From contig CANPZY010000003.1 of the NCBI GenBank assembly GCA_947588945.1, forward strand, positions 1,058-65,057: 64,000 nt of DNA, given 5' to 3'. The translations under genes were made by a program, and so were the position numbers. This stretch comes from an uncultured Clostridia bacterium. Lineage in GTDB: Bacteria > Bacillota > Clostridia > TANB77 > CAG-508. This document shows, piece by piece, positions 12,329 through 50,848 of this stretch; the stretch's first letter is position 1; every line of letters starts with the position of its first letter. A model generated the notes under the pieces. The model saw only the letters and a list, made by a program, of their open reading frames with translations. It ran no database searches and was not told the DNA's origin.

Positions 12329-12370
12329 TTTTTTGTTTTTGTTAATTATATTTTAAAGCATTTCATCAAT

Positions 12371-18259: not shown

Positions 18260-18491
18260 TCAAACTTCCACCAGTTATTATTTGATCAGGACCATATCCA
18301 TTTCTAGTTGGAGTTGATAATGTTCCTGCTATTTCTGGTGCTTCTGCTGATATATCTTGTATATCTTTACTTTCTTCTATAACTTCCATTATTTGTATTA
18401 CATTATTAGATACTAACTCAATTCCCATTATCAATAATATAATTGCACTAAATAATACAACTACAATTCTCTTAAGACATTTTCTGCTCAT
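18198..18491 (-). CDS. signal-peptide-bearing fragment, probably the true N-terminus of the 12371..18259 protein (frameshifted)
   Basis: MSRKCLKRIVVVLFSAIILLIMGIELVSN is signal/anchor-like. The ORF overlaps the start of the big ORF by 62 nt in a different frame. The big frame is closed by TGA immediately upstream of its GTG. Confidence 0.5.
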   Translation of the reverse strand: MSRKCLKRIVVVLFSAIILLIMGIELVSNNVIQIMEVIEESKDIQDISAEAPEIAGTLSTPTRNGYGPDQIITGGSLSGADANHQYLYAPRNILCRS

Positions 18492-18560
18492 ATTATCCTC
18501 CTTTCTTTCGTATTTTCTCTTTTCTTAATTATCATTTTCATTTTTTTTACCTTGCATTTT

Positions 18561-32406: not shown

Positions 32407-34768
32407 TTATAATATTTCAAGCCCAGCAAATTTTGCCATCAATCTCTTATGTCCTGCTTTTTCAAAATCTATATCAACTTTTATATCTTCCCCTTCTTCT
32501 TCTAATTTAGAAATTACTCCTTCTCCAAATTTTTTGTGAAATACTTTTTGTCCAACTTTATACTGACTTAAATCCACTTGTGGAGATTTTTTTGCTTGAA
32601 GTGAAGCTAAAAATCCTTCTGCTGACCTTCCAAACTTAACTTCACTACTTTTAAAGCTTCCTGTATTTATTCCGATACTTTTTGCTACATCATATCCTTC
32701 ATTTTGATTATAAAAATCTTTTCCTACCTTATATGTTGTAACTTTTCCACCCCTGCTAGAAAATTTATCTTCAAAGTTATATCCTCTTCCATAGTTCCAT
32801 GAATAATTTGTATCCTCAAATTCTTCTGGCTCTTCCTGTTTCTCCATAGCTTCTTCATACCCATCAAGTATATCTTTTGGAATTTCCTTTAAGAATCTTG
32901 ATGGTGGATTATAACTAGTAGAACCAAATATTGTCCTTCTTCTAGCAAAAGTTAAGAATAAATTTTGTTTTGCTCTAGTAATTCCTACATAAAAAAGTCT
33001 TCTCTCTTCCTCAATGTCTGCTGGATTATCCATTGATTGATGTCCTGGAAAAATTCCTTCTTCTAATCCTACTAAAAATATAACTGGATATTCTAATCCT
33101 TTAGCACTATGTAGTGTCATCAAAGTAACTACATCTTCTGTGTCCGATAGATTATCTGTATCACTTGCTAATGATATTCCATTTAAAAACTCTGTTAATG
33201 ATTTATCTACTGCTTCTTTTTCAAATTCATTAGCTACTGTTAAAAATTCTTCTATATTTTCAAGTCTACTTTCTGCTTCAACAGTATTTTCATTTTCTAA
33301 ACTCTTTGTATATCCTGTTTTATTTAACACTTCTGTAATTAAATCTGCTATTGAACATTCTTTATCTTTTAGTTCTTCTATAGCATTAACAAATTCTCTT
33401 GTATTATTATAAATTCTAGGTACAAATTCGTCAGCTCTTTTTATAACTTCATACATTGATATTCCATTTTTTTCTGAAATTTCTCTAACATTATCTATGC
33501 TTGTCTTTCCTACTCCTCTTTTAGGTTCATTTATAATTCTTTCTAATGATAAGTTATCAGATTGATTAGCGAGTAATCTTAAATATGCAATTGTATCTTT
33601 TATTTCTTTTCTCTCATAGAATTTTAATCCACCAATTATTTTATATGGAATATTTTCAATTCTAAGCTTGTCTTCTATTGCTCTTGATTGTGAGTTCATT
33701 CTATAAAGTACTGCAAAATCAGAATACTTATAATATTCTTCTCTTCTTAATTTATTAATTTGCTCTATTATAAAATTAGATTCAGAATATTCATCTTCTC
33801 CGCAAAAAACATAAGGTAATGTTCCTTCTTCATTTTCAGTCCAAAGTCTTTTATCATATTTATTTTCGTTATGCTTAATTACCGCATTTGCCGTTTTTAA
33901 TATGTTTCCAGTACAACGATAATTTTGCTCTAATTTAATTATTTTAGTACCAGGATAATCTTTTTCAAAGTTTAAAATATTTGAAATATCTGCTCCGGCG
34001 GAAACTATAAATTCCCTGGTCATTATCACCAACAACCGTAACATTTCCATACTTTGATGCTAGTAGTGTTACTAATGTAAATTGTGCTTTATTTGTATCT
34101 TGATATTCGTCTACTAAAACATATTTGAATTTACTTGAATAGTAATCTAATACATCTGGATTTTCCATTAATATTTTTATTGTAAAATTAATAATATCAT
34201 CAAAGTCAATTGCATTATTCTGTTTTAATCTTTGCTGATATAATGAATAAACTTTTGCTATGATACCTTTTCTATAGTCATTACTGTATTCATCCATGTA
34301 TGCTTTTGGTTCTATCATTTCATTTTTTGCATTACTAATTTCATTTAAAATTGATTTTTCCGTAAATAATTTTGTATCAATATTTAAATCTTTTAAGCAA
34401 TTCTTTATTAAAGTCTTTTGATCTGATGTATCGAAAATTGCAAAAGATGTATCAAATCCAAGTCTATCAATAAATTTTCTAAGAATTCTTACACATATTG
34501 AGTGAAATGTTCCAAGCCATAAATCATTTATATTTTCTCCAATTAAAGCTTCTGCTCTATCTCTCATTTCATCAGCAGCTTTATTTGTAAATGTAATTGC
34601 AAGTATATTCCATGGTTTTATATTTTTTTCTTGCATTAAATATGCAATTTTATATGTTAAAACTTTTGTTTTTCCACTTCCGGCACCTGCTATAACAAGG
34701 CATGGTCCTTCCGTAGTTTCTACAGCTTCTTTTTGTTTTGGGTTAAGTTCTTTTAGTAAATTTTGCAT
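32407..34768 (-). pseudogene. pcrA: ATP-dependent DNA helicase PcrA, interrupted by a 1-nt frameshift (or a sequence error)
   Basis: Two overlapping ORFs (33965..34768 and 32407..34050) together carry AGAGSGKT, DEYQDTN, VGDNDQGIYSFR, QNYRCT, TLHSAKGLEYP and YVGITRAK. Removing one base from TTCCGCCGGAGC (plus strand 33995-34001) restores ...GIYSFRGADISNILNFEKDYP. Confidence 0.9.
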
Positions 34769-37045: not shown

Positions 37046-38854
37046 TCAAGTTATATCAATATAATTAAAGTCAACATTTAATTTTTCTAATATCTTTTTT
37101 TCTCTATCTGTGCAAGTAAATATTACAATTTGATTTTCAATCTGAGCTAAGAATTTCAGAGTTTCTTCTAATCTTTCATCATCATAAAAAGCAAAAGTTT
37201 CATCTAATAATATAGGTAATCTTTCTGTAGAAATCCCATCAATTACAGAAAGTCTTAGTGCTAAGTATATTTGTTCAATTGTTCCTGTGCTTAATCTATC
37301 AATTGATACATATTTGCCATTCTCTAATTCAACTGATATATCATCATTTATAATAATATTTTTATACTTTCCTTTTGAAATTTTTTCAATATTTTTAGAT
37401 AAATTTATATTAAATTTTGGTGTTATATTATTTTTCATTTCAATATAAGATTCTTCAATTAGATTTTTAGTTATATTAATTACTCTGGCTCTATCTTCTA
37501 ATTTTTTCAAATTTGATTTTTCTAAATCAAGTTTTTCTTCTAAATCTGCCAAATGTTCAAGTTTTGGTTCTATGTTATCCATGTCCAATTCTAATTTATG
37601 TAATTCTAAAGTTAAATTTTCAATTTCTTTATTACTATCATAAAGCTTTTTCTCAATATTCTCATCTTCTAGTAAATTAATAATTTCTTTTCCATATATA
37701 TCAATTAAACTTTCTTTTTTCTCAAAATACTCATTATTTAATTCCTCTTTTAATTTTTCTATTTCCATTTTTAATTCATTATTATTAGTTTCTAATGTTT
37801 TTACAGGTAAATCAATATTTTTTAAATAATATTTTTTATTATTAACCATTTTAATAAATACTATTAAAATAAAAATTGGAATTAATAAAAAAATCATTAA
37901 TCTAATTATTTTATTTTTTATAAAAATAAAATTAAAAATATTTATAATTATTAAAAAAAATAAAATAATTAAAAATTTTTTATTATTATTTTTTTTATTT
38001 TTATTATTTTTAATATTTTTTATTTTTTCAATTTTATTTTTATTTTCTTTATAAATATTTTCTTTTATTTTTATTTTTTCGTTTTTTATTTTTTTATCAT
38101 TAAAAATATCAAATATTTTTTCTAAAATTTTTTTATTATTTTTTAAATAAATTAATTTTTTATTTATTTTTTTATTTTTTTCTTCTATTTCATATTTAAT
38201 ATTTTTAATATTTTTTATATTTTCTAATTCATTTTCATAATTAATAATATTTTCTTTAGAAATATTAATTGGTCTATCTTGACTTTTGTTAGTACCAACT
38301 TCAGTAAGTAATGTTTTTTCTAAAATATTAATTGCTTTTTTATATGAAATTTCTTCATCACCACTCTCAACTAAATTAGCTACTTTTTGAATTAAAATAT
38401 TTTGCATATTAGTATTAATTCTTGTTTCATTCTGTGAAGCAATTACTGTTGATAATAATGTATCTTTATCAACTTTAACTTGATCATAAAAAAATAAATT
38501 TCCCATTTTTTTATCTATATTATATTTGTTAGAAATATCTCTCCCCATTTCATCATATATTTCTGCACTTTTTTTATTAAAATTTCTAAAAACCTCGTAT
38601 TGCTTATTATTATCTAATTTATAAATAATTTTTCCCGAAAATTCATTTTCGTTCCAAGGTAAATACTTGTCATAATCAGATAAATTTTTTCCATTTTTAT
38701 TTTTAGAAATATTATATAAAATATTTATAATAAAATTTAAAATTGTAGATTTTCCTGATTCATTTTTTCCATATATAATATTTATTTTTTCTAAATTAAA
38801 ATTTTTATTTTTTAATTTACCATAAGAATTAATTTTTAATTTTTTTATTTTCAA
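37046..38854 (-). CDS. YhaN/SbcC-like AAA ATPase with a central K/N-rich and hydrophobic segment (TTG start)
   Basis: Walker A GKNESGKST, signature-like LSTGTIEQ, Walker B LPILLDETFAFYDD. Central FLIILFFLIIINIFNFIFI and LMIFLLIPIFILIVFI helices. GGAG precedes the TTG start. Confidence 0.7.
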   Translation of the reverse strand: MKIKKLKINSYGKLKNKNFNLEKINIIYGKNESGKSTILNFIINILYNISKNKNGKNLSDYDKYLPWNENEFSGKIIYKLDNNKQYEVFRNFNKKSAEIYDEMGRDISNKYNIDKKMGNLFFYDQVKVDKDTLLSTVIASQNETRINTNMQNILIQKVANLVESGDEEISYKKAINILEKTLLTEVGTNKSQDRPINISKENIINYENELENIKNIKNIKYEIEEKNKKINKKLIYLKNNKKILEKIFDIFNDKKIKNEKIKIKENIYKENKNKIEKIKNIKNNKNKKNNNKKFLIILFFLIIINIFNFIFIKNKIIRLMIFLLIPIFILIVFIKMVNNKKYYLKNIDLPVKTLETNNNELKMEIEKLKEELNNEYFEKKESLIDIYGKEIINLLEDENIEKKLYDSNKEIENLTLELHKLELDMDNIEPKLEHLADLEEKLDLEKSNLKKLEDRARVINITKNLIEESYIEMKNNITPKFNINLSKNIEKISKGKYKNIIINDDISVELENGKYVSIDRLSTGTIEQIYLALRLSVIDGISTERLPILLDETFAFYDDERLEETLKFLAQIENQIVIFTCTDREKKILEKLNVDFNYIDIT

Positions 38855-39452
38855 TTTTTTTCTCCTATCTTTATAAAAATTATTAAATATATTTTTATTT
38901 TTTGTTTTATTTTATCTTTTTAATTAATTAATCTTTTTATTTTTTGTTTTATTTTACCTTTTTAATTTATTTATTTTTTTATTTATAAAATAAAAGATTA
39001 GTATTCCATTTTTTTACATATTACATTGTAATTTTTTCTCACAATTTTAAATTTTGATGTTGATGTTTTTTCGTCTCTCTATTTGTTTTTTTGACAATTT
39101 ACAATTTTGTCGCACTTTTTTTAACTATTTTTTGTCTTTCAGGGTGTGTTTTTTTGATTTTTTTACTTTTAAATTTTACTCTAAAAATTTCAAAAATGTA
39201 ATCATTTTTATTCAATTTCCCATAGTTTTCTTTAAATTTTTCTTTTTTTAATTTTTTTAATTTCTTAACTTGTCTTTTTGGATTTACGTTTTTTTACTTA
39301 ATCTTTATCTCTTTATTAACCTTTATCTTATATGGTTTTTTATCTCGTTTTATGTATACCTTTTTATCTTTTTTATTTCATAAAAAAGGTAAAAATTAAG
39401 ACATTATCTTATAGAATTCTTTTTAATATTTTAAAAATCATATTATAATTTT

Positions 39453-39838
39453 GTATTTTATTTTTATAATTTATTTGTATTTATTTTTTATTTTATTTTT
39501 ATTTTTTTCTATTTTTTTTATATTTTATTTTTACAATTTATCTATATCTATTTTTTATTGTTTTTTATTTTTGTTTAATCTTTATGTTTTATTTTTATAA
39601 TTTATTTATATTTATTTTTAATTTTATTTTTATTTTTTTTCTATTATTTTTTATATTTTATTTTTACAATTTATATATATCTATTTTTTATTGTTTTTTA
39701 TTTTTTGTTTAATCTTTATGTTTTATTTTTATAATTATTTATTTTTAATTTTATTTTTATTTTTCTATTTTTTTATTTTTTTTATAATTTATTTATATTT
39801 ATTTTTTTATTTTATTTAATATTTTTTTAATTTATTTT
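39453..39838. repeat. AT-only tandem repeat, about 133-bp unit x 2.9
   Basis: Units at 39453-39585, 39586-39719 and 39720-~39838 (third copy diverged and partial). A second short repeat with a period of about 45 bp lies at 38892-38975. Confidence 0.8.
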
Positions 39839-40876
39839 TTAATTATTAAATATTTTTATAATTAATTCTAAAATTTCATCATATTCTTTTTTATTAATTT
39901 CATTATTTTTTAATTTTTCATTTAACTTTTTTATACTTATTCCTTTTAATGTATTATTATTTTCTTTTATTTCTATTTTTAATTCTGTATAATCTTTTAT
40001 TTTTATTATATTTTTTTGTATTAATTTTAAATCAATATTAATAATAAAATTTCTATATCCAATTAAATTTATTTCATATAAATTATTACCTGTATCAATT
40101 AAATTTAATTTTTCAATTAAATCCTCTTCTGAATATATATCTGAAACATCTACATCAATTTCTATAAATTCTCTTTCATCTGCTTTTATAAATTCTGTCT
40201 TCACTTTATTTTTTGTTATTTCTCCATAAATAAAACCATGCTCTCCTATCTCATCAAACCCCATCGAAATTAAAGAACCTGGATAAAAATTATCTCTCTT
40301 ATGTATATGACCTAATGCTACATAGTCAAATCCATTTTCTTCTAACTTATTTTTACTAATTGGATTATATATACCACTTATTTCATTTCCTGATATAACT
40401 GTTCCATGTGTAATTAATATATTTATTTTATTTTTATCATCAATTTTTATATCCTCTAATTGATTATCATTCATTTCATAATTATTAAATCCATAACCAT
40501 AGATATTTACTTCCGGGTTTTCCACTTTTTCTGCTTTTTCTGTGAATATCTTTACATTTTCAGCCCAATCAAAAGTCTTATAATATGAATTTGACATATA
40601 TGGATCATGATTTCCTGGTGCAATATATATTTTAGTATTATTTATTTCCTTAAATAAATTATTTACATATATAATTGTAGATTTTCTAACATAATCTTGC
40701 TCGAAAAAATCCCCACTAATAAATAAATATTCTATATCATTTTCTTTAATAAATTCTATTACTTTTTTAAAAGCAGATCTTTGCTCTAATCTTCTTATCT
40801 TTCCTAAATCTGCTCTATCTGATATTGTTTTAAATGGAGTGTCAAAATGTATATCTGCTAAATGTACAAATTTCAT
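39839..40876 (-). CDS. YhaO/SbcD-like metallophosphoesterase (nuclease subunit)
   Basis: HLADIHFD, GDFF, GNHD and GHIH motifs. Confidence 0.85.
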   Translation of the reverse strand: MKFVHLADIHFDTPFKTISDRADLGKIRRLEQRSAFKKVIEFIKENDIEYLFISGDFFEQDYVRKSTIIYVNNLFKEINNTKIYIAPGNHDPYMSNSYYKTFDWAENVKIFTEKAEKVENPEVNIYGYGFNNYEMNDNQLEDIKIDDKNKINILITHGTVISGNEISGIYNPISKNKLEENGFDYVALGHIHKRDNFYPGSLISMGFDEIGEHGFIYGEITKNKVKTEFIKADEREFIEIDVDVSDIYSEEDLIEKLNLIDTGNNLYEINLIGYRNFIINIDLKLIQKNIIKIKDYTELKIEIKENNNTLKGISIKKLNEKLKNNEINKKEYDEILELIIKIFNN

Positions 40877-41047: not shown

Positions 41048-41077
41048 TTGAAAAAATACCCCTTTTTGTGGTAAAAT
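41048..41077 (+). promoter_or_regulatory. candidate sigma-A promoter of the plus-strand block
   Basis: TTGAAA (41048-53), 18-nt spacer ending TGG, TAAAAT (41072-77). Lies 37 nt upstream of ATG 41114. Confidence 0.35.
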
Positions 41078-41113
41078 AAGAGTATAAGAGTTTTTGAAAG
41101 GAACCATATAAAT

Positions 41114-42919
41114 ATGAATAATATATTTCTACTTTTATCTATAATTATATTAATACTTACAGTTATAAAAGCAAAAAAAAATATAAATGATACAAAAAAA
41201 TGGATACCTATATCAATACTTGGAATGACAGCTTCACTTGCTATATTAATTTTTCCGCTAAGTACACAGCCAGATTTTATAGGAAAACTAGTAAATTCAA
41301 TTTTATATTCTGCACAAACCATTATTTTAAATGAAAATTTAGGAATACTTGATAATTTTCAGATAATAAATATATTTGATACAATTTATATTGGCGTAAT
41401 TTATTTATTAACATTATTAATGCCTTTACTTACAGTATCTTTTTTATTAACTCTTATAGGTGATTTTACAACCAAATTTAAACTATATTTTACTAGAAAA
41501 AAAGATATATTAATTTTTTCAGAATTAAATGAAAAATCTGTAACTATAGCTAAACGCTTATATGATAAAGGAAAAATTATTATTTTTGCAAATTGTGATA
41601 AAGAAAATTTAAAAAATTATGACTTGAAAGGGCTTAATATTACTAAATTTTATTCATTAATAGAAAATATAAATTTAAAAAGGATAAAAAGCAATACAAT
41701 TACTATTTATTTAGTAAACGAAATAGAAAATGAAAATTTAACTTTAACTTTAAGATTGATTGAAAAAAATAAATCATTAAATAAAAAAATTAAAATTTAT
41801 ACTATATTAAATGATGAAGTTTCTAGAATTATTTTAGATTCAACTGACAAAGGCAATATCCAACTAGAAATTGTAAATGAAGTTGAAAGAACTATTATAC
41901 AATTATTGCAAGATAAACCTATTTATCTAAATGCTATAAACAATGAGATTTCTGTTTTAATAGTAGGTTGTGGCAAAGTTGGAAGAGAATTTTTAAAAAT
42001 AATTACATGGTGTGGTCAGATTATAGGATATAAACTAAAAATAAATATTATTGATATTCGAGCAAATAGCATAAAAGAATCACTTACTAAAGAGTGTCCT
42101 GAATTAATTTCAAATTATAACTACAACTTTATTGAAGCAGACATTAACTCTCAAAAGGCATTAGATGAGCTAAACAAATTAAAAAATATTAATTATATAG
42201 TTGTAACCCTTCAAAATGATGAAATGAACATAAAAGAAGCTATTTATTTAAGAAAATATTTTTTGTTACAAGATAAAGAAAATTACAACAATAAGCCACT
42301 TATAAATATTTGGATAAAAGATGTAGAAAAAAGTATGCAAATAAATTACTTGAAAGCTGATGAAAAAACACAATATAATTTAAATGCTTTTGGAAGCATT
42401 AATGATATTTACTACAAATATCCAATTATTGATTCTAAAATAGAGCATATGTCTCAAAGAGTACATTTAATATATAATGCGGATGATACTAATTTAGAAA
42501 AATATTATGAAACAGAATATAATGTAAAATCTTCGAGAGCAACTGCAACTCATATAAAATACAAAATTTATTCAGTATTAAAAGATGAATATACTGGTGA
42601 TATTGGAACTGATTTAAATAACTTTGAGAAAAAACTTCAAGATGAAAAAATTTTTAATGAATTAGTAAAAAATGAACACAATAGATGGATAGCATATATG
42701 AGAAGCGATGGATATCAAAGTGCTTCAGTTGCTGATGTTGAGAAATATCGTGAAAAAATAAATGACACAAAACATATTTTAGCAAAATTACATCCTGCTA
42801 TAGCAGAATTTGAAAAACTAGATGAAATTGAACATAAGCTTAATAAAAACTTTAAAGAGTCAGACATAAAAATTATTAAAAATATACCATATATTTATAA
42901 GGAAGATAACAATATATAA
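41114..42919 (+). CDS. membrane protein with Rossmann (GxGxxG) domain and C-terminal RyR-like domain
   Basis: Three N-terminal TM helices. VLIVGCGKVGREF is a dinucleotide-binding motif. C-terminal ELVKNEHNRWIAYMRSDGYQ...KLHPAIAEFEKLDEIE resembles the bacterial RyR domain (PF02026). Confidence 0.6.
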   Translation: MNNIFLLLSIIILILTVIKAKKNINDTKKWIPISILGMTASLAILIFPLSTQPDFIGKLVNSILYSAQTIILNENLGILDNFQIINIFDTIYIGVIYLLTLLMPLLTVSFLLTLIGDFTTKFKLYFTRKKDILIFSELNEKSVTIAKRLYDKGKIIIFANCDKENLKNYDLKGLNITKFYSLIENINLKRIKSNTITIYLVNEIENENLTLTLRLIEKNKSLNKKIKIYTILNDEVSRIILDSTDKGNIQLEIVNEVERTIIQLLQDKPIYLNAINNEISVLIVGCGKVGREFLKIITWCGQIIGYKLKINIIDIRANSIKESLTKECPELISNYNYNFIEADINSQKALDELNKLKNINYIVVTLQNDEMNIKEAIYLRKYFLLQDKENYNNKPLINIWIKDVEKSMQINYLKADEKTQYNLNAFGSINDIYYKYPIIDSKIEHMSQRVHLIYNADDTNLEKYYETEYNVKSSRATATHIKYKIYSVLKDEYTGDIGTDLNNFEKKLQDEKIFNELVKNEHNRWIAYMRSDGYQSASVADVEKYREKINDTKHILAKLHPAIAEFEKLDEIEHKLNKNFKESDIKIIKNIPYIYKEDNNI

Positions 42920-43015
42920 GCCCATACTAATATAGAAATACTTTATAAGAATCTTTAAATTACTTATAAAGCTAAGATACAACACAGAAAAATAAAGAAT
43001 AATGCTTTTATAATT

Positions 43016-43975
43016 ATGTATAAAAAAGGAATGAAATTTTATATGAATTTAGAATATAAAGATATAAATGAACAAATAGAAATCATAAAGTCTAGTAATA
43101 TTATAATAAAAAATGAAAAAGAAGCTAAAGAAATTCTTTTAAGAGAAAATTATTATAACCTAATTACTGGTTACAGAAATATATTCATTGATATAAAAAA
43201 TTCTAAAAAAGATGGAATTGAAACATGCACAACTGACACTTATTTTGAAGAAATTTATGCCGTTTACAAATTTGACAGAGAACTTAGAAATATAATGCTT
43301 AATTATATTTCTATTATTGAAATTAATATAAAGTCATACATAGCTAATACTTTTTCTAAGAAATATGGTGTTTACAATTATCTAAATGAAGAAAATTTTA
43401 ATATTAATGATAAAACTAGACCAATTTATAGAGATTTAATGCAAAAATTAGATGATAATTTAAATAGAAATATTGATAATTACAAAGATATAAAGGAATG
43501 TAAAGAACTATATAATACCATTCCTCTATGGATGTTTACTACTTTAATTACTTTTGGAAATATTATAAAATTCTATAGTTTAATGAAAATTGAAGACAAA
43601 AAAGAAGTATCTAATCTTTGCCAAATTAATTATAAAGATTTACTTACTTTTTTGAAAATGTTAAACACTGTTAGAAACATTGCTGCACATAGCAATATGC
43701 TATTTAATTTGAATTTAAGCATTTCTTATCCAATTCATAAAAAGTCTTTTTACCATGATGATTTAGGAATTGCTAAAAATGGAGAGCACTACGAATCAGG
43801 TGAAAACGACATTTTATCTATTATAATTATTTTAAAAAGACTTTTGAAAAAAAGTGATTATAATAATTTTTTAAATAAATTTAACTTAGCAGTTCATAAT
43901 GTAAAAGAAGAATTAGATGAGGAAAGTTTTAATAATTTTATGCATATAATGGGAGTTCCAGAACACTTAAAATAA
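43016..43975 (+). CDS. Abi_2 (AbiD/AbiF-like) abortive-infection protein, HEPN-type
   Basis: YYNLITGYRNIF, FDRELRN and VRNIAAHSNMLFN (Rx4H HEPN motif). The real start may be ATG 43043 (MNLEYKD). Confidence 0.8.
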   Translation: MYKKGMKFYMNLEYKDINEQIEIIKSSNIIIKNEKEAKEILLRENYYNLITGYRNIFIDIKNSKKDGIETCTTDTYFEEIYAVYKFDRELRNIMLNYISIIEINIKSYIANTFSKKYGVYNYLNEENFNINDKTRPIYRDLMQKLDDNLNRNIDNYKDIKECKELYNTIPLWMFTTLITFGNIIKFYSLMKIEDKKEVSNLCQINYKDLLTFLKMLNTVRNIAAHSNMLFNLNLSISYPIHKKSFYHDDLGIAKNGEHYESGENDILSIIIILKRLLKKSDYNNFLNKFNLAVHNVKEELDEESFNNFMHIMGVPEHLK

Positions 43976-44068
43976 GTTAATTATAAGGTTTATAGGTAGC
44001 CTAAAAACCTAAATATAAAAAAAAGGATATGTTTATTAAAATTAACATATTATATGAGGATATGAGTT

Positions 44069-47000
44069 ATGAAAAAAATTAATATTTTCTTAGCAGTTGA
44101 TGAAAAAGAACTACAAAACGAAAAAGATGAAATTGGAAATTTTATACGTGATTTAAATGACAAATATGAGAATTATGATATTTATTTTAGACTAATTACA
44201 GATGATGATTCTGAGGTTTTAACTGATGATATAAAGAAAAGTGAATTGTTTTTTATACTATTTTCACATACTGCAGATGAAAAAATAGTTCAAGAATTTA
44301 ATACTGCTTATGAGTTTTTCAAGAATAATCATAATCCTAAAATTACAACATATATCAAGAAAAGCAAAAATCCAGATGAGTCAGTTGTTAATTTTATGAA
44401 GCATTTAGATGAAGAACTAGGTCATTATTATAATCAGTATGAAAATATTGATACAATCAAGTTAAATATAATTTTGCAATTAAAATCTTTAGGCTTAGAA
44501 GCTGGCAAAATTGAGGTTATAGATAATAAATTATGTATTAATAAAGACGAAATAATGACTTTAGATAATATTCCATTTATATTTAACAATAAAGACTTAA
44601 ATAACTTAAAGGAACAGTATAATAAACTAGACCAAGAATATTGGGAATATAAAGATATTATTAGAAAAAATCCTGATGATGAAAAAGCTTTTGAAAAATT
44701 CTCTGATATAAATGATAAGAGATCAAAAATAAAAGATAATATATACCAAATTGAAAATAATATTATTGAATTAGAAAGTAGTTTTATTTCTTCATCAATG
44801 GATGGCAAGCTTTCTAAAAGACAAATATATGCAAAAAAATGCTTAGATGATGGTGATTTAGAAGAAGCCAAAAATGCTTTATCTTTTGAAGATTTAAAAT
44901 CAGATGGTGATAAATTATTGAAAATTCAAGAGAAGCAAAAAGAAGAAATGCAAACCATTGTAAATGAGCTTATGCAAAGAGTTGATATACTAAAATTAGA
45001 TATAAATAATAACAACAGATATAAAGAAATTGAAGAAGCTTTTGAGGAAGCTGTAAAGCTTGATGAACAAGGAAATTTAAATAGACGCAGTTTATATAAA
45101 TATAGTTTATATTTGAATAACCAGACTCAATACGATAAAGCAATAAAATTTGCTAACAAATATAAAGAATATTTGAATTTAAGCTCAACTAAAGAGTATT
45201 ATGAAAAAGAATTTGACGAAGGAACATATTATAATACTTTATCAAGTATTTATAACCACTTAGGAATCATTTATTATAATATTGGTAAATATGAAGAAGC
45301 TGAAAAAATATATCTAGAATTAATTGAAATAGACAAAAAATTAGTTGAAATTAATCCGAAATTGTATCAAAATAATCTTTCTATTGCTTATAATAATCTA
45401 GGACTAGCTTATTTATACTTTGAAGATGTGAAATTTGAACTAGCTAAAGACTGTTTCTTGAAAGCAATAGAAATAGATGAAAAAATATTAACTGAAGGCC
45501 ATAACGATTATTATAGAGTTGTATTATCTAATTCATATAATAACTATGCACTTTTACTTGAAAAATATAGTGACTTTCATAATGCATTAAAATATTATAG
45601 AAAATCAACAGATATAAGAATTGACTTAGTAAAAAAATATCCCCAAGATGAATATAAAAAAGAACTTTTATCTGCTTCTTATCATCAGCTTGGAAAATAT
45701 GCCCTTAGAATATCAAAATATGATATAGCTGAAGATTATCTTTTAAAAGATATGAAACTAATGGAAGAATTATATGAAAGTAATTCTAAAGCTTATATGA
45801 GTCGGATTAGCAGGTTCTTATCGAACCATTGGCCGTTTTTATTTAACAATATATAAATATGACAAAGCTCAATTTTATTATAACAAGGCATTAAAATTAT
45901 ATGAAAAACTTGCTAATAATAAAACAGAGAGCACTCAAATAGACCTTATACAAATTTACCAAAGTTTTGGAGAATTTTATATAAAATTAAAAGATTATGA
46001 GACTTCAGAAAAATATTTAAAAAAGGCTCAAGAACAACTTGATTACTATGTGAAAGAATTTGATAATAAAAATATTGAAGCTTACTTTTCAGATTTATAT
46101 GCCAGCTTTTTTAACCTATACAATACAATGAATAATTTTGAAAAAGCAAAAGAATATTGCTTAATGGAAATTGAAGTTGACAAAAAATTAGCAGAAAAAA
46201 ATGCAAGAAAATATAATTCTTTTCTTGCAAGTGATTATGAATCATATGGTAATTTGTTAGGAAATGACCAAGAATATTATAAAAAAGCCATTGATATATT
46301 AAAAAATACTTTATATTTACAAAAATCAGACTCTGAATATTCTTTAGCTAATTTAAATGATAAAATCAGTAATTTATATAAGAAAATTAAAAATTATGAT
46401 GAGGCAGAAAAATATTTAGTAAATAATATAAGTATTTACAAGAATTTAATTCCTAATATGAAAGGTTTATATGAACCTGATTTAGCAAGGAATTATCAAT
46501 CATTAGGAGATATTTATATATTTTTAAAAAAATATGATGAAGCAGAAAAAAGCTATTTAGATGGAATTGACTTAATAGAAAAAATTCATCTTAGAGATGA
46601 AAAATATTTTAATCCAACTCTTGCTTCATGTTACTATGATTTAGGCATTCTATATTTGAATAATATGAAAAAATATGAAGATGCTGAAAAATATCTTTCA
46701 AAAAGTATGCAAATTAGAGAAAAATATTCTGATGAAAATAATTCTAGCTCAATCTTTGACTTAAGTTTTTCTTACTGTACTTTAGGTGAACTTTATAAAG
46801 TAACTGGAAAAAATAAAGAAGCTGAAAATTATTATTTAAAATCATTAAAAATAAGACAAGATTTAGATAAAAAGGCAAAAAATAATGATTATACTGATAA
46901 TATTGCGTTTGTTTTTAATAGACTAGGTTCACTTTATTTATATAATATGAATCAAATTGATAAAGCTGAAGAATATTATTTAAAAGCATTTGAATTATAT

Positions 47001-48008
47001 AAACAATTATCAGAATATAATTTTAATCAAAATGGACTAAATCTTGCTAAAACATATAATGACCTTATAAATTTGTACAACAAAAAGCAAGACTATGAAA
47101 AGGTTGAAGCATATTATAAAGATAGAATAGCTGTTTTAGAAAAACTTTTAGATAATGATTTTTCTGAATATGCTTCCTATTTATATAATACTTATAAACA
47201 ATTAGCCAACACATATTTTCAAAGAAAACAATATCAAGATGCAGAAAAATATTATTTAAGTGCTTTTGAATTATGCTCTAAATTATACAATGATGATAAA
47301 GAATTATATGAATCAGATTATGCTGATATATGTGATTGCTTAGTTAGTGTTTATATTAATACTAATAAAATTGAAAAAACAATAGATTACTATAAAATAT
47401 CACTTGAAATTCGTGAAAAACCATCAATGCAGAAAACAATAGTAAACAAACATAATCTAGCTAATTTATATTATAATATTGCTTTAATATTTTCTAAATT
47501 AAAGGATAAAAAATATACAGAATATTTTTATCTAAAATCTATGAATACAGAGCGAGAACTATTTAAGGAAACTGATAAGTATACTGCTTCACTTGCTAAC
47601 GCTTATCATAAGGTTGCTGAATTTTACTATGATAATAAAAAATATGAAGATTCAGAAACATATTACTTTATGGCTATAGAACTTGAAGAAAATTTAATAA
47701 AAGATAATTATGAAAAATATGAAACTACTTTAATTTATGACTATATGGAAATGGCAGAATCATGTAGACACAATAAAAAATATGATGATGCTTCATCTTA
47801 TTATTTAAAAGCTATTGAAATGTTAGAAAAAGCTTATGAAAATAATCATGAATATGCCCAAGATTTAGCCTTTACTTATTATAATTTAGCTAGAGTATGC
47901 CTAAAATTAGATTTAATTGATGATGCTACTAAATATACAAAAATGGCTAAAAACTTTAAAGCAGAATTTAAAGCTCAGCAAAAAAATAAAAAGAAAGGAA
48001 AAGAATAA
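44069..48008 (+). pseudogene. DUF4062-like N-terminal module + coiled coil + very long TPR array, split by a +1 frameshift near 45800 (about 1,310 aa if repaired)
   Basis: ORF 44069..45856 and the frame open from 45801 to 48008 both read as TPR repeats across the junction (...ELYESNSKAYM / VGLAGSYRTIGRFYLTIYKYDKAQFYYNKALKLYEKL). N-terminus KINIFLAVDEKELQNEKDEIGNFIRDL...SELFFILFS. GAGGA RBS upstream. Confidence 0.75.
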
Positions 48009-48448
48009 TGAAAAGATTAAAAATTTTCCTTGCATCATCTGTTAATGAATTTAAGAATGAAAGAAATCAGATAGGAAACACTATTAGAAAATTACAAGAT
48101 AAGCTAATCGATGATGGAGTTAGAATTAATTTATTTGAATGCGAATTCGCTGATAATACCGTATCAACTGAAAGAAAACAAGCAGACTATAATAGTGAAA
48201 TTCCTACTTCTGATATATTTATAATGATAGTAGGAAAAAGAATCGGACAGTATACTTTAGAAGAATATGAAATAGCTAAAAAAAGCAATGTAAAACATAT
48301 ACAAGTTATATTCAAAGATGTTGAATATGATGAAGATGTCAAGAAAATTAGACAAGATGAATCTATTAATAAATATGAATATAAGTCAAGAGAAGAACTT
48401 GATGAGATTATAAAAAAATTAATAATAAGTGCACTAAATAAAAATTAA
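48008..48448 (+). CDS. stand-alone DUF4062-like protein (146 aa)
   Basis: LKIFLASSVNEFKNERNQIGNTIRKL...SDIFIMIVGKRIGQYTLEEYEIAKK matches my recollection of the DUF4062 consensus (vFiSSt..dL.eER..i...i...sDifv.iiG.rYG...E.E...A). The start overlaps the upstream stop (TAATG). Confidence 0.6.
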   Translation: MKRLKIFLASSVNEFKNERNQIGNTIRKLQDKLIDDGVRINLFECEFADNTVSTERKQADYNSEIPTSDIFIMIVGKRIGQYTLEEYEIAKKSNVKHIQVIFKDVEYDEDVKKIRQDESINKYEYKSREELDEIIKKLIISALNKN

Positions 48449-48530
48449 AAAATATAAAGAAAACATAATAAATTATAAGTTATAAATAAAAAATTATCAA
48501 TTATAAAAATAAAACTAATAAAATAATTTA

Positions 48531-48654
48531 AAAATAAAAAATATAAATAATTCTCGTATCTTGTTGTCGCAGAAAAGTGTTTCACACTTTTCGCTCCATT
48601 CGCGCTTCGCTTGAGCGCTACGCGATACTTCGAATTATTTATATTTTTTATTTT
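48531..48654 (-). repeat. palindromic structured element, copy B (inverted relative to copy A)
   Basis: Outer stem 48536-48553 / 48632-48649 (18 of 18 bp, extendable). Closing stem GTATC/GATAC (48556-60 / 48624-28). Hairpin GAAAAGTGT-TTC-ACACTTTTC (48572-92). Core shared with copy A. Confidence 0.7.
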
Positions 48655-48805
48655 TTTTGATTAAATTTTTTTTGATTATTTTATTATTTTTTTATGATAT
48701 TTTTAATAATATTTTTTATTTAATTTATATTTATACTTATATTTTTATTTTTATTTATATTTTAATTTACATTTTATCTTTACATTTTATTTGTATTACT
48801 TTAAA

Positions 48806-50848
48806 TTATTCCATTGGACCAAACAATTCATCAAATTTAGCTTCTAATTCCTTTTGAATATCTAGTTCATCTTCTTGTGTTGGTTGTTCACTTACTGAGC
48901 TTTGAAAAATATTACTATTTTCCATTTCACTTTTTATTTGATTTGTTAATTCTTCGCTATTATTTTTTATTTCTGGAACTGTTTGTTCTATTGGTTGAGC
49001 TTCATTTGAATTCTTTTCTTCTTTTTTATTTTCATCATTCCATAAGTCATCTAGCGATTCAACTTTAAATGATTGCTCTTTTTCATCATCTACTGCTTTT
49101 CCTGTAAATGGGTTATATGGATCAAATTTTCTCCATTCTCCTCTTTCCCCTGCATCAAAGTCATTATGATCTATTCTTATTGAATTTAAGTCCTTTGTAA
49201 TTCTAGGCTTTTTAAACCAATAATACTTTTTTGCCATAATTGGCTTTAAACCTTTTTCAAAAATTATGCAATTATTATTATCTAATCTTCTTAATTCATC
49301 TGGTGTCATAAGTGCTCTTGCCATTATTTGATCAGATTCACTATATCCTTTTCTATCATTATAATTATCTCTATTTATTGATTTACTATAATGTGAAATT
49401 GTTTTTTCACCTAATTCTTTCGAAAAATACTCTACTGTTGCATAAGAGTTGCTTCCTAAGAATACATGTGTGTCACAGTTACCTATTATTGTTTCATAAG
49501 ATTTTTCATATAAAGCTTTAAGCTGATCTAAGTTTTGTAATATAACACTAAATGAAATTCCTCTACTTCTACTTGTTGATATTTTTTTATCAAAGTCCGG
49601 AATCTGACCTATATTTGAAAACTCATCTAGTATAAAAAATGTTTTTTGTGGCAATTTTCCACCATTTTTATCTGCAAAATCATATAATTGTTGTATCATC
49701 TGTGAGAAAAATATTGTTAGTAAAAAGTCATAAGCTGTATGCGTATCTGATGATACTACATATAGAGCTGTTTTCTTCGTAGCAATATCTTCAAAACTTA
49801 TTGTATTAGTTGATGTTACATTTGCAATTTCCTTTGAATCAAATTTTCCTAATTTTGACTGTAAAGAACTTAATATAGAACTGTATGTCTTGTCTGAAGA
49901 TATTTCAACTGATTTATAATTCATTCTAGCAGGATGGTCATAAGGCAATTTATTAAATAATTCTGATAAAAGATTTGTATTTCCTTTTGTATTTGCAGCT
50001 CTAACAAGTTCTGCGCAACTTGCTAAATTTTGTTCCTCTGGAGGTACTGCTGCTATTAAATAATATATTAAAGCTTTTAATAATAGCTCTGACATATTGT
50101 CCCAGAATGGATCTTGTGCTCCTGCTGCTTCTGATTTTTGTCCTTTTACTATGGTATTTGCTATAACATCTACATCTAATTCTGATTTAACATGTTGTAT
50201 TGGATTATAACTATCACTACTATTTGGGTTTACTAAATTTAATAATTTTATTTCATAACCTTGAGATTTCAAGTATCCAGCTGTTGCATCATATATTTCA
50301 CCTTTTGGATCTGTAAATATATAAGATCCAAGGCATTGATGAGCATTTGGAATAGTATATGCAGATGATTTACCAGAACCTGAACCACCGACTATTAATA
50401 CATTAGTATTACCTAGCTTATCTAAAGGTAAATAATTCTCTTCTGCAAGTATTATTCCGGCATTTCTGCTAAGTACTCTATATTGTTCTCCACCAGAACT
50501 CCAATCACTTGAGCCATGTTCTATTTTGTCATATTTTCCTTTTTTTCTACTTTTAAATAGGCCTATTCCTACACATATAGCAAAAAATACTGTAAAAATT
50601 GCTGTCCATAACATAAAGGTTCCAAAATAACCTTCTTTAAATATCTTTCCAACACCAGCAACTTTTACAATATTTAATGTAAAATTTTCAAAAAAGTAGC
50701 TTAAATCAAAAACACCGGTAGCACTACTATCAACTATTGTTGTAGATAATGGAGCTACCACAAATATCTCTGCAAATAGCCAAAATACAATAGTTAATAT
50801 TATTGCTACCATATGTTTTTTTATCATTACCATAAAACTATCTTTCAT
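48806..50848 (-). CDS. VirD4/TraG-type type IV secretion coupling protein
   Basis: Two N-terminal TM helices, Walker A VLIVGGSGSGKSSAYTIPN, DPKGE, Walker B FFILDEFSNIG, RSRGISFSVILQNLDQL, and an acidic C-terminal tail. Confidence 0.85.
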   Translation of the reverse strand: MKDSFMVMIKKHMVAIILTIVFWLFAEIFVVAPLSTTIVDSSATGVFDLSYFFENFTLNIVKVAGVGKIFKEGYFGTFMLWTAIFTVFFAICVGIGLFKSRKKGKYDKIEHGSSDWSSGGEQYRVLSRNAGIILAEENYLPLDKLGNTNVLIVGGSGSGKSSAYTIPNAHQCLGSYIFTDPKGEIYDATAGYLKSQGYEIKLLNLVNPNSSDSYNPIQHVKSELDVDVIANTIVKGQKSEAAGAQDPFWDNMSELLLKALIYYLIAAVPPEEQNLASCAELVRAANTKGNTNLLSELFNKLPYDHPARMNYKSVEISSDKTYSSILSSLQSKLGKFDSKEIANVTSTNTISFEDIATKKTALYVVSSDTHTAYDFLLTIFFSQMIQQLYDFADKNGGKLPQKTFFILDEFSNIGQIPDFDKKISTSRSRGISFSVILQNLDQLKALYEKSYETIIGNCDTHVFLGSNSYATVEYFSKELGEKTISHYSKSINRDNYNDRKGYSESDQIMARALMTPDELRRLDNNNCIIFEKGLKPIMAKKYYWFKKPRITKDLNSIRIDHNDFDAGERGEWRKFDPYNPFTGKAVDDEKEQSFKVESLDDLWNDENKKEEKNSNEAQPIEQTVPEIKNNSEELTNQIKSEMENSNIFQSSVSEQPTQEDELDIQKELEAKFDELFGPME

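Follow-up and report, generated by a model that had tools for sequence, protein, structure and literature searches.

What does a compact block of four co-directional genes do in the genome of an uncultured Clostridia bacterium, and do its products belong to one system? The block, with genes here called g1 to g4, lies in a stretch of 64,000 nucleotides (the window; contig CANPZY010000003.1, positions 1,058 to 65,057, assembly GCA_947588945.1). It encodes a membrane protein with RCK/Rossmann lobes and a divergent ryanodine receptor (RyR) repeat (g1), an Abi_2/AbiD-family protein (g2), a long DUF4062 protein with tetratricopeptide repeats (TPR) that is split over two open reading frames (ORFs; g3a and g3b), and a small free-standing DUF4062 protein (g4; Table 1). 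The reading favoured here, at slightly better than even confidence, is that the block represents one configuration of a modular, Thoeris-like abortive-infection system with an RyR-reading effector, g1. This reading follows from five lines of evidence, namely the position-specific linkage of g1 relatives to genes encoding TIR-type proteins, the swapping of these partners, the presence of several TIR-type genes per g1, the conservation of ligand-binding residues and the fusion of Abi_2 to RyR repeats.

Relatives of g1 were collected by protein search, from genomes scanned at one per GTDB species (36 loci) and from scanned metagenomes (21 loci), and their neighbours were annotated with Pfam and phmmer seeds. 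A TIR or DUF4062 gene is found within three genes of the g1 relative in 40-42 of 57 independent loci (27/36 species-representative genomes and 15/21 metagenome contigs), and the loci without such a partner are mostly contigs that end within or just after g1. This linkage supports the inference of an initial annotation of the block, which had proposed a conflict system made up of a sensor, a TIR-like module and an effector. It is also position-specific, with TIR/DUF4062 ORFs occupying position +1 relative to g1 in 28 of 52 loci, +2 in 9 of 41 and -1 in 8 of 48, while they make up 3 of 163 ORFs beyond three genes on either side (Fisher p = 1.7e-8). The genes on either side of the cassettes are housekeeping genes, unrelated to one another and different from locus to locus, and the g1/TIR pair therefore moves as a unit. 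The conservation of the gene neighbourhood, which the initial annotation had raised as a question, extends to the whole four-gene order (g1, Abi_2, DUF4062-coiled coil-TPR, small DUF4062), which recurs in L013 (95% g1 identity), L017 (60%) and L019 (52%). The notion of a four-gene system thus stood for these three loci and has to be narrowed for the others: the conserved core consists of g1 and a TIR/DUF4062 protein, and Abi_2, present in 8 of the 36 genome loci, is an optional add-on.

The same pattern bears on the possibility that independent single-gene systems are simply co-located, in which case AbiD would act alone, the DUF4062-TPR protein would be a NADase like Swarozyc, and g1 would serve as an ordinary cation channel regulated by RCK domains. 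AbiD and DUF4062 proteins are each able to defend as single genes (PADLOC AbiD; Swarozyc and Evangelion preprints), the block lies in a low-GC island together with an SbcCD-like pair and a VirD4 remnant, and some distant g1 relatives have no TIR neighbour. A set of mere neighbours would not be expected to show position-specific linkage across 57 loci despite changing flanks, gene overlaps and translational coupling, the fusion of RyR to Abi_2, or a gene order that is kept at 52-60% protein identity, and plasmid and viral collections show no g1 relative as stand-alone cargo. Co-location of unrelated systems is thus considered quite improbable.

The partners of g1 range from TIR proteins with MORN, WD40, NB-ARC, NPHP3_N or STING domains to DUF4062 proteins (Table 1). 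A canonical TIR_2, ThsB_TIR or CAP12-TIR partner with its Glu kept is present in 33 related loci, and none of the TIR partners has lost the catalytic Glu. Such swapping of partners around a constant g1 is, by analogy, a signature of sensor/effector modularity. Two to three TIR/DUF4062 genes accompany a single g1 in L017, L026, L031, L066 and L068, and small DUF4062 genes stand beside large ones in L013, L017, L019, L031 and L045. Thoeris loci likewise carry several thsB genes. The TIR-STING proteins sit directly upstream of g1 relatives (e.g. L027:7880-8989 and L034:7794-8930) and match the TIR effector model of PADLOC at 1.8e-35. Assignment of these pairs to CBASS was rejected, since no CD-NTase cyclase occurs among the ten flanking genes scanned around five of them (L027, L029, L030, L032, L034), all of which are housekeeping or unrelated genes; the window itself is without STING. 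As a separate observation, a conserved protein of 111-115 aa lies beside several g1/TIR cassettes (L001:9631-9966, L014:8591-8926, L017:8636-8971, L025:13819-14163, L026:16965-17312) and carries the motifs YGDFLNYPxSH..W and DYFPRGR, with CxKC at its C-terminus; the window does not encode it, and it gave no match in Pfam, PADLOC or the PDB.

In the AlphaFold2 (AF2) model of g1 (pLDDT 91.4, pTM 0.80), the membrane part consists of three long hydrophobic helices, the last two of them separated by a short helix-loop (residues 2-22, 27-49, short 55-70/76-81 and long 87-126). It is followed by two RCK/Rossmann lobes, of which the first is degenerate (131-270) and the second (278-435) contains GCGKVG...D314, then by a helical linker and a C-terminal divergent helical RyR (R12-type) repeat (511-595). 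The initial annotation had described a transmembrane (TM) protein with a GCGKVG dinucleotide-binding fold, and both elements are found: the TM helices are modelled, and the GxGxxG...D motif is intact, with GCGKVG at residue 285 and D314 conserved. The term Rossmann can be made more exact. Foldseek places g1 closest to the gating rings of GsuK, TrkA, CASTOR, BK/Slo1 and MthK (9e-6 to 7e-4; PDB entries 4gx1, 4j9v, 6o7a, 8ghf and 6oly among them), and the TrkA_N match is weak (2.7e-4, below cut-off); on the model, this part of g1 folds as a tandem RCK gating ring of the kind found in ligand-gated ion channels. Like the RCK-gated channels (GsuK, MthK, TrkA/TrkH, BK/Slo1, CASTOR), g1 has its tandem RCK ring right after the last TM helix, retains the dinucleotide motif and shows a succession of helix, short helix-loop and long helix that resembles M1-P-M2. 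Unlike them, it has neither a K+ selectivity signature nor detectable sequence similarity in the membrane part, and it combines an RyR repeat with a conflict-system context. In many family members the short helix is followed, at the position of a P-loop, by CAGMGQ[DN], which is suggestive of a pore motif. Channel activity is inferred from the fold, and g1 is proposed to be a signal-gated, channel-like effector.

The initial annotation had also called the C-terminus of g1 RyR-like, which holds at the level of the family, though not by a direct Pfam match. A profile of the g1 family (A2) matches RyR-repeat structures at 4e-5, across 41 residues only, and longer orthologues (~700 aa) add a canonical PF02026 repeat (1e-34). 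Canonical RyR repeats occur in three settings: appended to g1, encoded by 92-122-aa genes that flank g1 in about a dozen loci, or fused to Abi_2. The stand-alone proteins match PF02026 at 1e-34, Bacteroides thetaiotaomicron 3NRT at 1e-32 and the first R12 repeat of RyR2 at ~5e-24. When g1 was aligned manually with the B. thetaiotaomicron and human RyR2 repeats, EH522xxW525 (EHNRW), H560-P and D584 fell on the RyR motifs H-x-x-W, H-P and E-x-D. Among 65 family sequences D584 never varies, and conservation of H522, W525 and H560 reaches at least 90%.

Phage RyR-domain proteins use a His-x-x-Trp motif, a second His and an Asp to bind 2'/3' cyclic ADP-ribose (2'/3'cADPR) and cADPR, or to cleave 2'/3'cADPR (PMC13232231; 10.64898/2026.06.04.730250). 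RyDEP holds 3'cADPR through H75, W78, H100 and D117 (PMC13232231), and the ligand residues of RyR Tad are H129/W132, H154 and D171 (10.64898/2026.06.04.730250). With the RyDEP numbering matched by motifs, H522, W525, H560 and D584 of g1 would be the residues that bind 2'/3'cADPR in the phage proteins. The speculation that g1 is the receptor of a nucleotide signal, put forward in the initial annotation, is supported by this ligand chemistry and by the linkage of g1 to TIR/DUF4062 genes. RyDEP and RyR Tad resemble g1 in the fold of the RyR/R12 repeat and in the residues that contact the ligand (H-x-x-W, H-P, D), and their domain binds 2'/3'cADPR and cADPR at nM-uM. They differ in being small soluble phage proteins, whereas the RyR repeat is here host-encoded, carried by a membrane/RCK protein or by Abi_2, and tied to TIR genes. 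By analogy, this suggests that the host RyR repeat serves as the cognate receptor, from which the phage sponges may have evolved.

The same residues would also allow a role for g1 as a brake, in which its RyR repeat sponges or hydrolyses stray TIR product at the membrane, thereby preventing auto-immunity or resetting the system, and Abi_2 and/or NAD+ depletion do the killing. The only biochemically characterised microbial RyR-domain proteins are indeed 2'/3'cADPR sponges or glycosidases (PMC13232231; 10.64898/2026.06.04.730250), g1 has residues matching the RyDEP catalytic dyad H75 + D117, and some defence operons carry dispensable 'housekeeping' enzymes such as vstB (10.64898/2026.09.04.749371). 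At 600 aa, and with both a TM domain and a tandem RCK gating ring, g1 would, however, be an expensive sponge, a role to which the stand-alone 95-aa RyR proteins would be better suited, and most g1 and TIR pairs are two-gene cassettes without any other candidate effector; g1 as a brake is therefore deemed very unlikely.

The enzymatic side of the system would be provided in the window by g3 and g4. The call of g4 as a free DUF4062-like module is confirmed by Pfam (1.7e-7; 31.8 bits vs a gathering score of 24.7). Its AF2 model (pLDDT 87) shows a TIR/NDT-like fold of five beta-alpha units: Foldseek matches it to the CMP N-glycosidases MilB and BcmB, to DNPH1 and to nucleoside 2-deoxyribosyltransferases (NDT; 5e-5 to 1e-3). 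Such matches are in keeping with published work that puts DUF4062 between the TIR and NDT families (10.64898/2026.05.01.722283). The invariant Glu of the DUF4062 family corresponds to E86 of g4, is kept in the g3 head and would equal E97 of KpSwz. DUF4062, also named NIR, has been demonstrated experimentally to be a TIR-like NADase, at work in Swarozyc, Evangelion (Eva01), NIR-Avs2, Vulcan and Vesta (10.64898/2026.05.01.722283; 10.64898/2026.06.25.731849; 10.64898/2026.09.04.749371), so that the early speculation that DUF4062 is TIR-like has since been substantiated in preprints (10.64898/2026.05.01.722283; 10.64898/2026.09.04.749371).

The architecture first read for g3, a DUF4062-like head followed by a coiled coil and a long TPR array with no P-loop, is borne out. 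Its N-terminus gives no Pfam DUF4062 match; the head shares 53% identity with g4 over the first 32 aa (BLAST 2e-8), matches orthologues that Pfam calls DUF4062 (phmmer 1e-19 to 1e-92) and is homologous to proteins of L017, L019, L031 and L035. The head is followed by ~200 aa of helical/coiled-coil sequence and by TPRs with many Pfam matches, and neither a Walker A/P-loop nor an NB-ARC, NACHT or AAA match is present. The g3 frame is broken once, between 45801 and 45853, with g3b in the +1 frame relative to g3a. Alignment to the intact orthologue of L017 (1284 aa) places the break at about 45806, and in silico deletion of this base yields a stop-free ORF of 1312 aa that is collinear with the orthologue.

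The frameshift noted in the initial annotation is thus real, and it is not a fresh lesion. The same break is present in a second metagenome-assembled genome (MAG), that of L013, which shares 94.3% nucleotide identity with the window over 8.5 kb, and a sequencing or assembly error was therefore rejected. Relative to L013 all five ORFs of the block are under purifying selection, with dN/dS ratios of 0.10-0.25 (g1 0.10, g2 0.12, g3a 0.14, g3b 0.25, g4 0.11), which leaves a decaying pseudogene unsupported; since the break is shared and both halves are under purifying selection, it reflects neither misassembly nor a gene inactivated only recently. The interval 45801-46049 (249 nt) has w = 0.43 from 15 substitutions, no ribosome-binding site (RBS) precedes the GTG at 46050, and the sequence at the break (AGT CGG A TTA) is not evidently slippery. 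L017 has, next to its intact g3, a natural short paralogue of 624 aa, and L019 a split version of g3. The product of g3 may be a single read-through protein or two separately working ones.

The prediction of g2 as an Abi_2 protein with a HEPN motif proved accurate: it is a full-length Abi_2 protein (Pfam 1.6e-37; PADLOC AbiD 7.7e-54) with the HEPN Rx4H motif RNIAAH at residues 220-225. Its true start may lie five codons downstream because the orthologue in L013 has 314 aa. Abi_2 genes follow g1 relatives in L007-L011, L013, L016, L017, L019 and L033, and in L031, L039 and L045, counted among the eight genome loci with Abi_2, a single protein directly upstream of the g1 relative joins Abi_2 to a C-terminal canonical RyR repeat (Pfam Abi_2 5.8e-30 and RyR 8.4e-34). 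Like AbiD/AbiF proteins, g2 is a full-length member with the Rx4H motif; classical members are single genes, whereas Abi_2 here separates g1 from the TIR/DUF4062 gene, in some cases with frames that overlap, and occurs in three RyR fusions. From these motifs g2 is proposed to be an optional second effector, an RNase.

Taken as a Thoeris-like system, the cassette could work as follows. Sensor proteins composed of a repeat or receptor module and a TIR or DUF4062 N-glycosidase head, here g3 and g4, would detect infection and, once activated, cleave NAD+ to an ADP-ribose (ADPR)-derived nucleotide, which may be ADPR itself or a cyclic isomer. This nucleotide would bind the C-terminal RyR (R12-type) repeat of g1, whose membrane domain would open or rearrange via the RCK ring, so that ion gradients collapse and the infected cell stops. 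Abi_2 (g2), as a HEPN RNase, would be an optional second effector responding to the same signal, through an RyR repeat of its own in some relatives. The more specific idea of a bacterial TIR-to-RyR axis, in which (c)ADPR-type nucleotides gate an RyR/RCK ion channel and in some loci an RyR-fused HEPN RNase, is put forward tentatively, at somewhat less than even odds. Ligand identity, signalling direction, channel activity and defence phenotype are all proposals from computation.

Several observations weigh against this reading. No canonical TIR is found by Pfam in g1-g4 of the window, only DUF4062, and g3 is frame-broken in this genome. A profile of the g1 TM domain against the PDB gave nothing at E<=10, and hence no similarity to solved channels; the putative filter position of the window g1 reads TIILNEN, without a glycine motif. 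Pfam finds no RyR match on the window g1 at E<0.1, so that the RyR call rests on family-level evidence, and this protein has a single divergent repeat without a canonical partner repeat. A profile search of 1.84 billion cluster representatives (50% identity) returned 2142 g1-family clusters at E<=1e-30. Five distant members of the family were sampled, of which L072 has an RyR partner only and L075/76 no visible partner, neither with a TIR nearby; L073 has DUF4062-NPHP3_N-TPR and TraG/VirD4 neighbours, and MT835673 is uninformative. A Card1-like nuclease takes the place of TIR beside the g1-like proteins of L047, L048 and L074, the last of which is the fifth sampled member. Because of these distant members the link to TIR may hold for a subfamily only: it is established for the relatives around the window g1 (roughly >=37% identity), not for the whole family. 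Finally, all g1 relatives come from MAGs of uncultured gut Clostridia, Bacilli and Erysipelotrichaceae, among which assembly artefacts cannot be fully excluded. In the three Card1-like loci (L047:5481-12216, L048:5580-12361, L074:1-225) the g1-like gene (22-24% identity) is flanked by a double-AAA and M41 protease protein (~1125 aa) and the Card1-like (CARF-family) endonuclease; judged by these neighbours, this membrane protein family also occurs in another setting of nucleotide signalling.

TIR-STING and TIR-STAND proteins, which occur among the partners of g1, are known as self-sufficient NADase effectors, and this too counts against a signalling role for them. The characterised DUF4062 proteins likewise convert NAD+ to linear ADPR and nicotinamide and act as terminal NAD-depleting effectors (10.64898/2026.05.01.722283; 10.64898/2026.09.04.749371). 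A serious rival arises from the known role of DUF4062, TIR-STING and TIR-NLR proteins as terminal NADases; in it, the TIR/DUF4062 proteins are self-sufficient killers that deplete NAD+, and g1 is an accessory that monitors the NAD+/ADPR state without any dedicated messenger. TIR-STING is a known CBASS NADase effector, as the PADLOC match reflects, the TIR-STAND-TPR partners resemble Avs/NLR proteins, and g1 retains the GxGxxG...D motif of a fold whose members in TrkA and GsuK bind NAD(H)/ADP/ATP. What such a model leaves unexplained is the consistent addition, duplication and Abi_2 fusion of a cADPR-type binding RyR repeat, as well as the pairing of short, sensor-less ThsB-like TIRs with g1 in L066; it is regarded as unlikely on balance. 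In this model g1 would do its monitoring through its GxGxxG site and/or RyR repeat, and would add a second, faster hit by depolarising the membrane or rescue the cell by ion export or re-balancing. The brake role and mere co-location fit the data less well than either the Thoeris-like reading or that of self-sufficient NADases.

If the Thoeris-like reading is retained, the question becomes whether the cassette corresponds to a system already named. A survey of Thoeris (Yirmiya et al. 2025) lists types I-XI and 29 putative effector classes and removed Avs-type and stand-alone TIRs (10.64898/2025.12.03.692087); its text and the part of the supplements consulted contain no RyR, TrkA or Rossmann effector. 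The described effector families were compared through Pfam/PADLOC, with type X alone compared by direct sequence, and g1-g4 have no SLOG, Macro, SLATT, DUF2270, DUF6650 or caspase domain in Pfam. The cassette shares with Thoeris an effector gene beside one or several TIR-type genes with intact catalytic Glu, an effector that combines a small-nucleotide-binding domain with an often membrane-spanning killing module, and compact cassettes in variable contexts. It differs in that g1 (TM, tandem RCK and RyR) belongs to none of the ThsA-ThsL families, in that many g1 partners are large TIR-repeat or TIR-NLR proteins, which the survey left out as presumed NADase effectors, and in that the window copy uses DUF4062, not TIR. 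The 'ion channel' effector of type X was rejected as an equivalent of g1, being a protein of 208 aa with a TLTYGGF filter (L070; hhalign probability 0.1%). In the type X locus, recovered from a published TIR sequence (L070:2740-4468, Vibrio sp. JCM 19052), the gene of this effector lies between two ThsB-type TIR genes, and the locus adjoins a topoisomerase and a NikA-like gene.

The DUF4062/NIR systems have in common with g3 and g4 a head with the conserved Glu, its fusion to a variable C-terminal sensing module and an island or mobile-element context; they are single proteins or have unrelated partners, deplete NAD+ and none has an RyR, RCK-membrane or Abi_2 partner. The combination of g3 (coiled coil and ~1000 aa of TPR, no STAND NTPase) with a free DUF4062 is unlike the DUF4062/NIR systems as described in the portions of the sources consulted. 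Named architectures are a single protein of DUF4062 and AUX (Swarozyc/Eva01) or DUF4062-STAND-TPR, and g3 belongs to a multi-gene operon. The P-loop NTPase of Avs/STAND proteins is missing from g3 and present in some partners at other loci (NB-ARC, NPHP3_N). The likeness to animal RyR/cADPR signalling lies in an RyR R12-type repeat on a channel-like membrane protein and in a TIR-family NAD-derived (c)ADPR as suspected modulator; the membrane domains are unrelated, 601 aa stand against a subunit of roughly 5000 aa, and only the repeat is homologous (~5e-24 per repeat to RyR2 R12). The DUF4062/NIR domain is also found in human TEP1. The initial annotation recognised no named system, which holds for the combination around g1, as g1 has no PADLOC match, PADLOC models cover neither g1 nor the RyR and DUF4062-TPR proteins, and the literature searched on RyR with TIR, SLOG or conflict systems holds no earlier description; it does not hold for DUF4062 proteins as such, which occur in Swarozyc, Evangelion, NIR-Avs, Vulcan and Vesta. 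The cassette looks like a fit to the general Thoeris concept, with a g1 effector/sensor class and a use of DUF4062 that are undescribed in the searched sources.

The four genes of the block were found exactly where the initial annotation had placed them; the features of the locus are summarised with the comparative ones in Table 1. The intergenic gaps between g1 and g2 and between g2 and g3, given as about 95-125 and 93 nt, measure 96 and 93 nt, and the stop codon of g3 overlaps the start codon of g4 in TAATG at 48006-48010, by which g4 is predicted to be translationally coupled to g3, as had been claimed. An RBS-like GAAAGGAA is located 10 nt ahead of the g1 ATG. A weaker point is the promoter-like site upstream of g1, which is present with 10/12 matches and a TG and has no statistical weight, as sigma-70-like sites are not enriched in this AT-rich region (89 observed vs 77.5 +/- 10.2 in shuffled sequence). 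The palindromic element reported after the block is a perfect inverted repeat with 24-nt arms, and a scan for terminators found none on the plus strand 3' of g4. Within the AT-rich intergenic region 48445-48805, the segment 48445-48792 aligns to L013 in reverse at 83% identity, as if inverted or palindromic.

Table 1. Features of the block and its surroundings in the window, and partner genes of g1 relatives at other loci (positions in nucleotides)
Feature	Position or loci	Strand	Description
Whole block	41114-48448	+	five ORFs, four co-directional genes (ORF calling)
g1	41114-42919	+	601-aa membrane protein; TM, tandem RCK/Rossmann, divergent RyR repeat
g2	43016-43975	+	319 aa, Abi_2/AbiD-family HEPN protein
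g3a	44069-45856	+	595-aa ORF; DUF4062-type head, helical/coiled-coil region, first TPRs
g3b	46050-48008 (frame open from 45801)	+	652 aa from first start GTG at 46050; TPR array
g4	48008-48448	+	146-aa free-standing DUF4062 (TIR/NDT-like) protein
Promoter-like site	41048-41077	+	TTGAAA-18-TAAAAT with TG, 5' of g1; candidate only
AT-rich inverted repeat	48530-48553 / 48632-48655		24-nt perfect arms, end of block; possibly terminator or recombination site
VirD4-like coupling protein (CD1115 family)	48806-50848	-	3e-133; adjoins block
SbcC-like ATPase and SbcD-like phosphoesterase	37046-40876	-	same very low-GC island; not shown to be part of the system
Split UvrD/PcrA helicase	33965-34768 (N-terminal helicase domain) and 32407-34050 (C-terminal part)	-	two overlapping ORFs
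Three very large genes	4691-23225	-	2545 aa (GH94/glucoamylase); 1962 aa and 1554 aa (SdrD_B, DUF11, CarboxypepD_reg repeats)
Partner TIR_2 and MORN repeats	L001, L007, L014, L015, L024, L044
Partner TIR and WD40	L012, L037, L038, most metagenome loci
Partner TIR, NB-ARC and TPR or TIR, NPHP3_N and TPR	L020, L021, L025, L026, L031, L040, L041, L068
Partner TIR and STING	L027-30, L032, L034, L049
Partner short TIRs	L066		ThsB-like, without sensor domains
Partner DUF4062	L013, L017, L019, L022, L023, L031, L035, L045, L056, L064, L073		small, or fused to coiled coil and TPR (and Ig-like)
Abi_2-RyR fusions	L031:4460-5620, L045:5847-7007, L039:3-1136		single proteins, directly upstream of g1 relative

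The block sits in a low-GC island of ~15 kb (13-23% GC), bounded by chromosomal genes on one side (prfA, ZIP transporter, pcrA, PBP) and on the other (dnaJ-like, ddl, murF, ypeB, recR, dnaX). The gene that follows it encodes a VirD4-like protein, in agreement with the type IV secretion coupling protein of the initial annotation, and the block therefore lies in a remnant mobile-element island with housekeeping flanks. A known plasmid or phage element was rejected, as neither megablast nor tblastn against PLSDB gave a match and the viral-contig scan returned no g1 relative; one 24%-identical match in an 'UNVERIFIED Bacteriophage sp.' contig, with a GC of 63% and no TIR neighbour, is uninformative. 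On a contig unrelated to the window, L073 (1222-8919) has a TraG/VirD4 gene beside the DUF4062-NPHP3_N-TPR gene (1062 aa), followed by a 972-aa g1-like protein that carries a second Rossmann and RyR-like unit. The VirD4/TraG neighbour in the window and in L073 hints that conjugative elements carry g1 cassettes.

On the other side of the block, the SMC/SbcC-like ATPase (602 aa) and the SbcD-like metallophosphoesterase (345 aa) are encoded in DNA of 13-17% GC and parted by an ORF-free AT-rich spacer of ~1 kb (38855-39838). The pair gives weak PADLOC matches (PbeC 9e-8, PDC-S10 9e-8) and an NCBIfam match to 'anti-phage phosphoesterase' (1e-5), also adjoins the block in L013 and may be a second, separate defence module in the island. 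The UvrD/PcrA helicase is the second frame-disrupted gene of the window, and the three very large genes are probably cell-surface or polysaccharide-related and unrelated to the block.

The cassette has the look of a new, so far undescribed branch of antiviral signalling of the Thoeris type, and it echoes, by analogy, animal cADPR-to-RyR signalling. If this is true, proteins that join an RyR repeat to an RCK channel-like part would be a new effector/sensor class for TIR-based bacterial immunity, and large TIR-NLR, TIR-WD40, TIR-MORN, TIR-STING and DUF4062 proteins, usually deemed terminal NADases, could feed a downstream receptor. DUF4062/NIR would then be a signal-generating enzyme too, beyond NAD+ depletion, and one DUF4062/NIR preprint raises the speculation of signal production by some NIR domains. 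An ancestral role would fall to the RyR repeat as receptor module for TIR products, and the phage RyDEP and RyR Tad sponges would be captured copies of host receptors, which would explain the origin of these anti-defence proteins. The debated action of cADPR on animal ryanodine receptors would gain a prokaryotic immune antecedent, and with it a tractable bacterial model of whether and how (c)ADPR-type ligands act via the RyR R12 repeat. With more than 2000 clusters at 50% identity, the g1 family is invisible to PADLOC, and defence censuses of gut Firmicutes therefore miss it.

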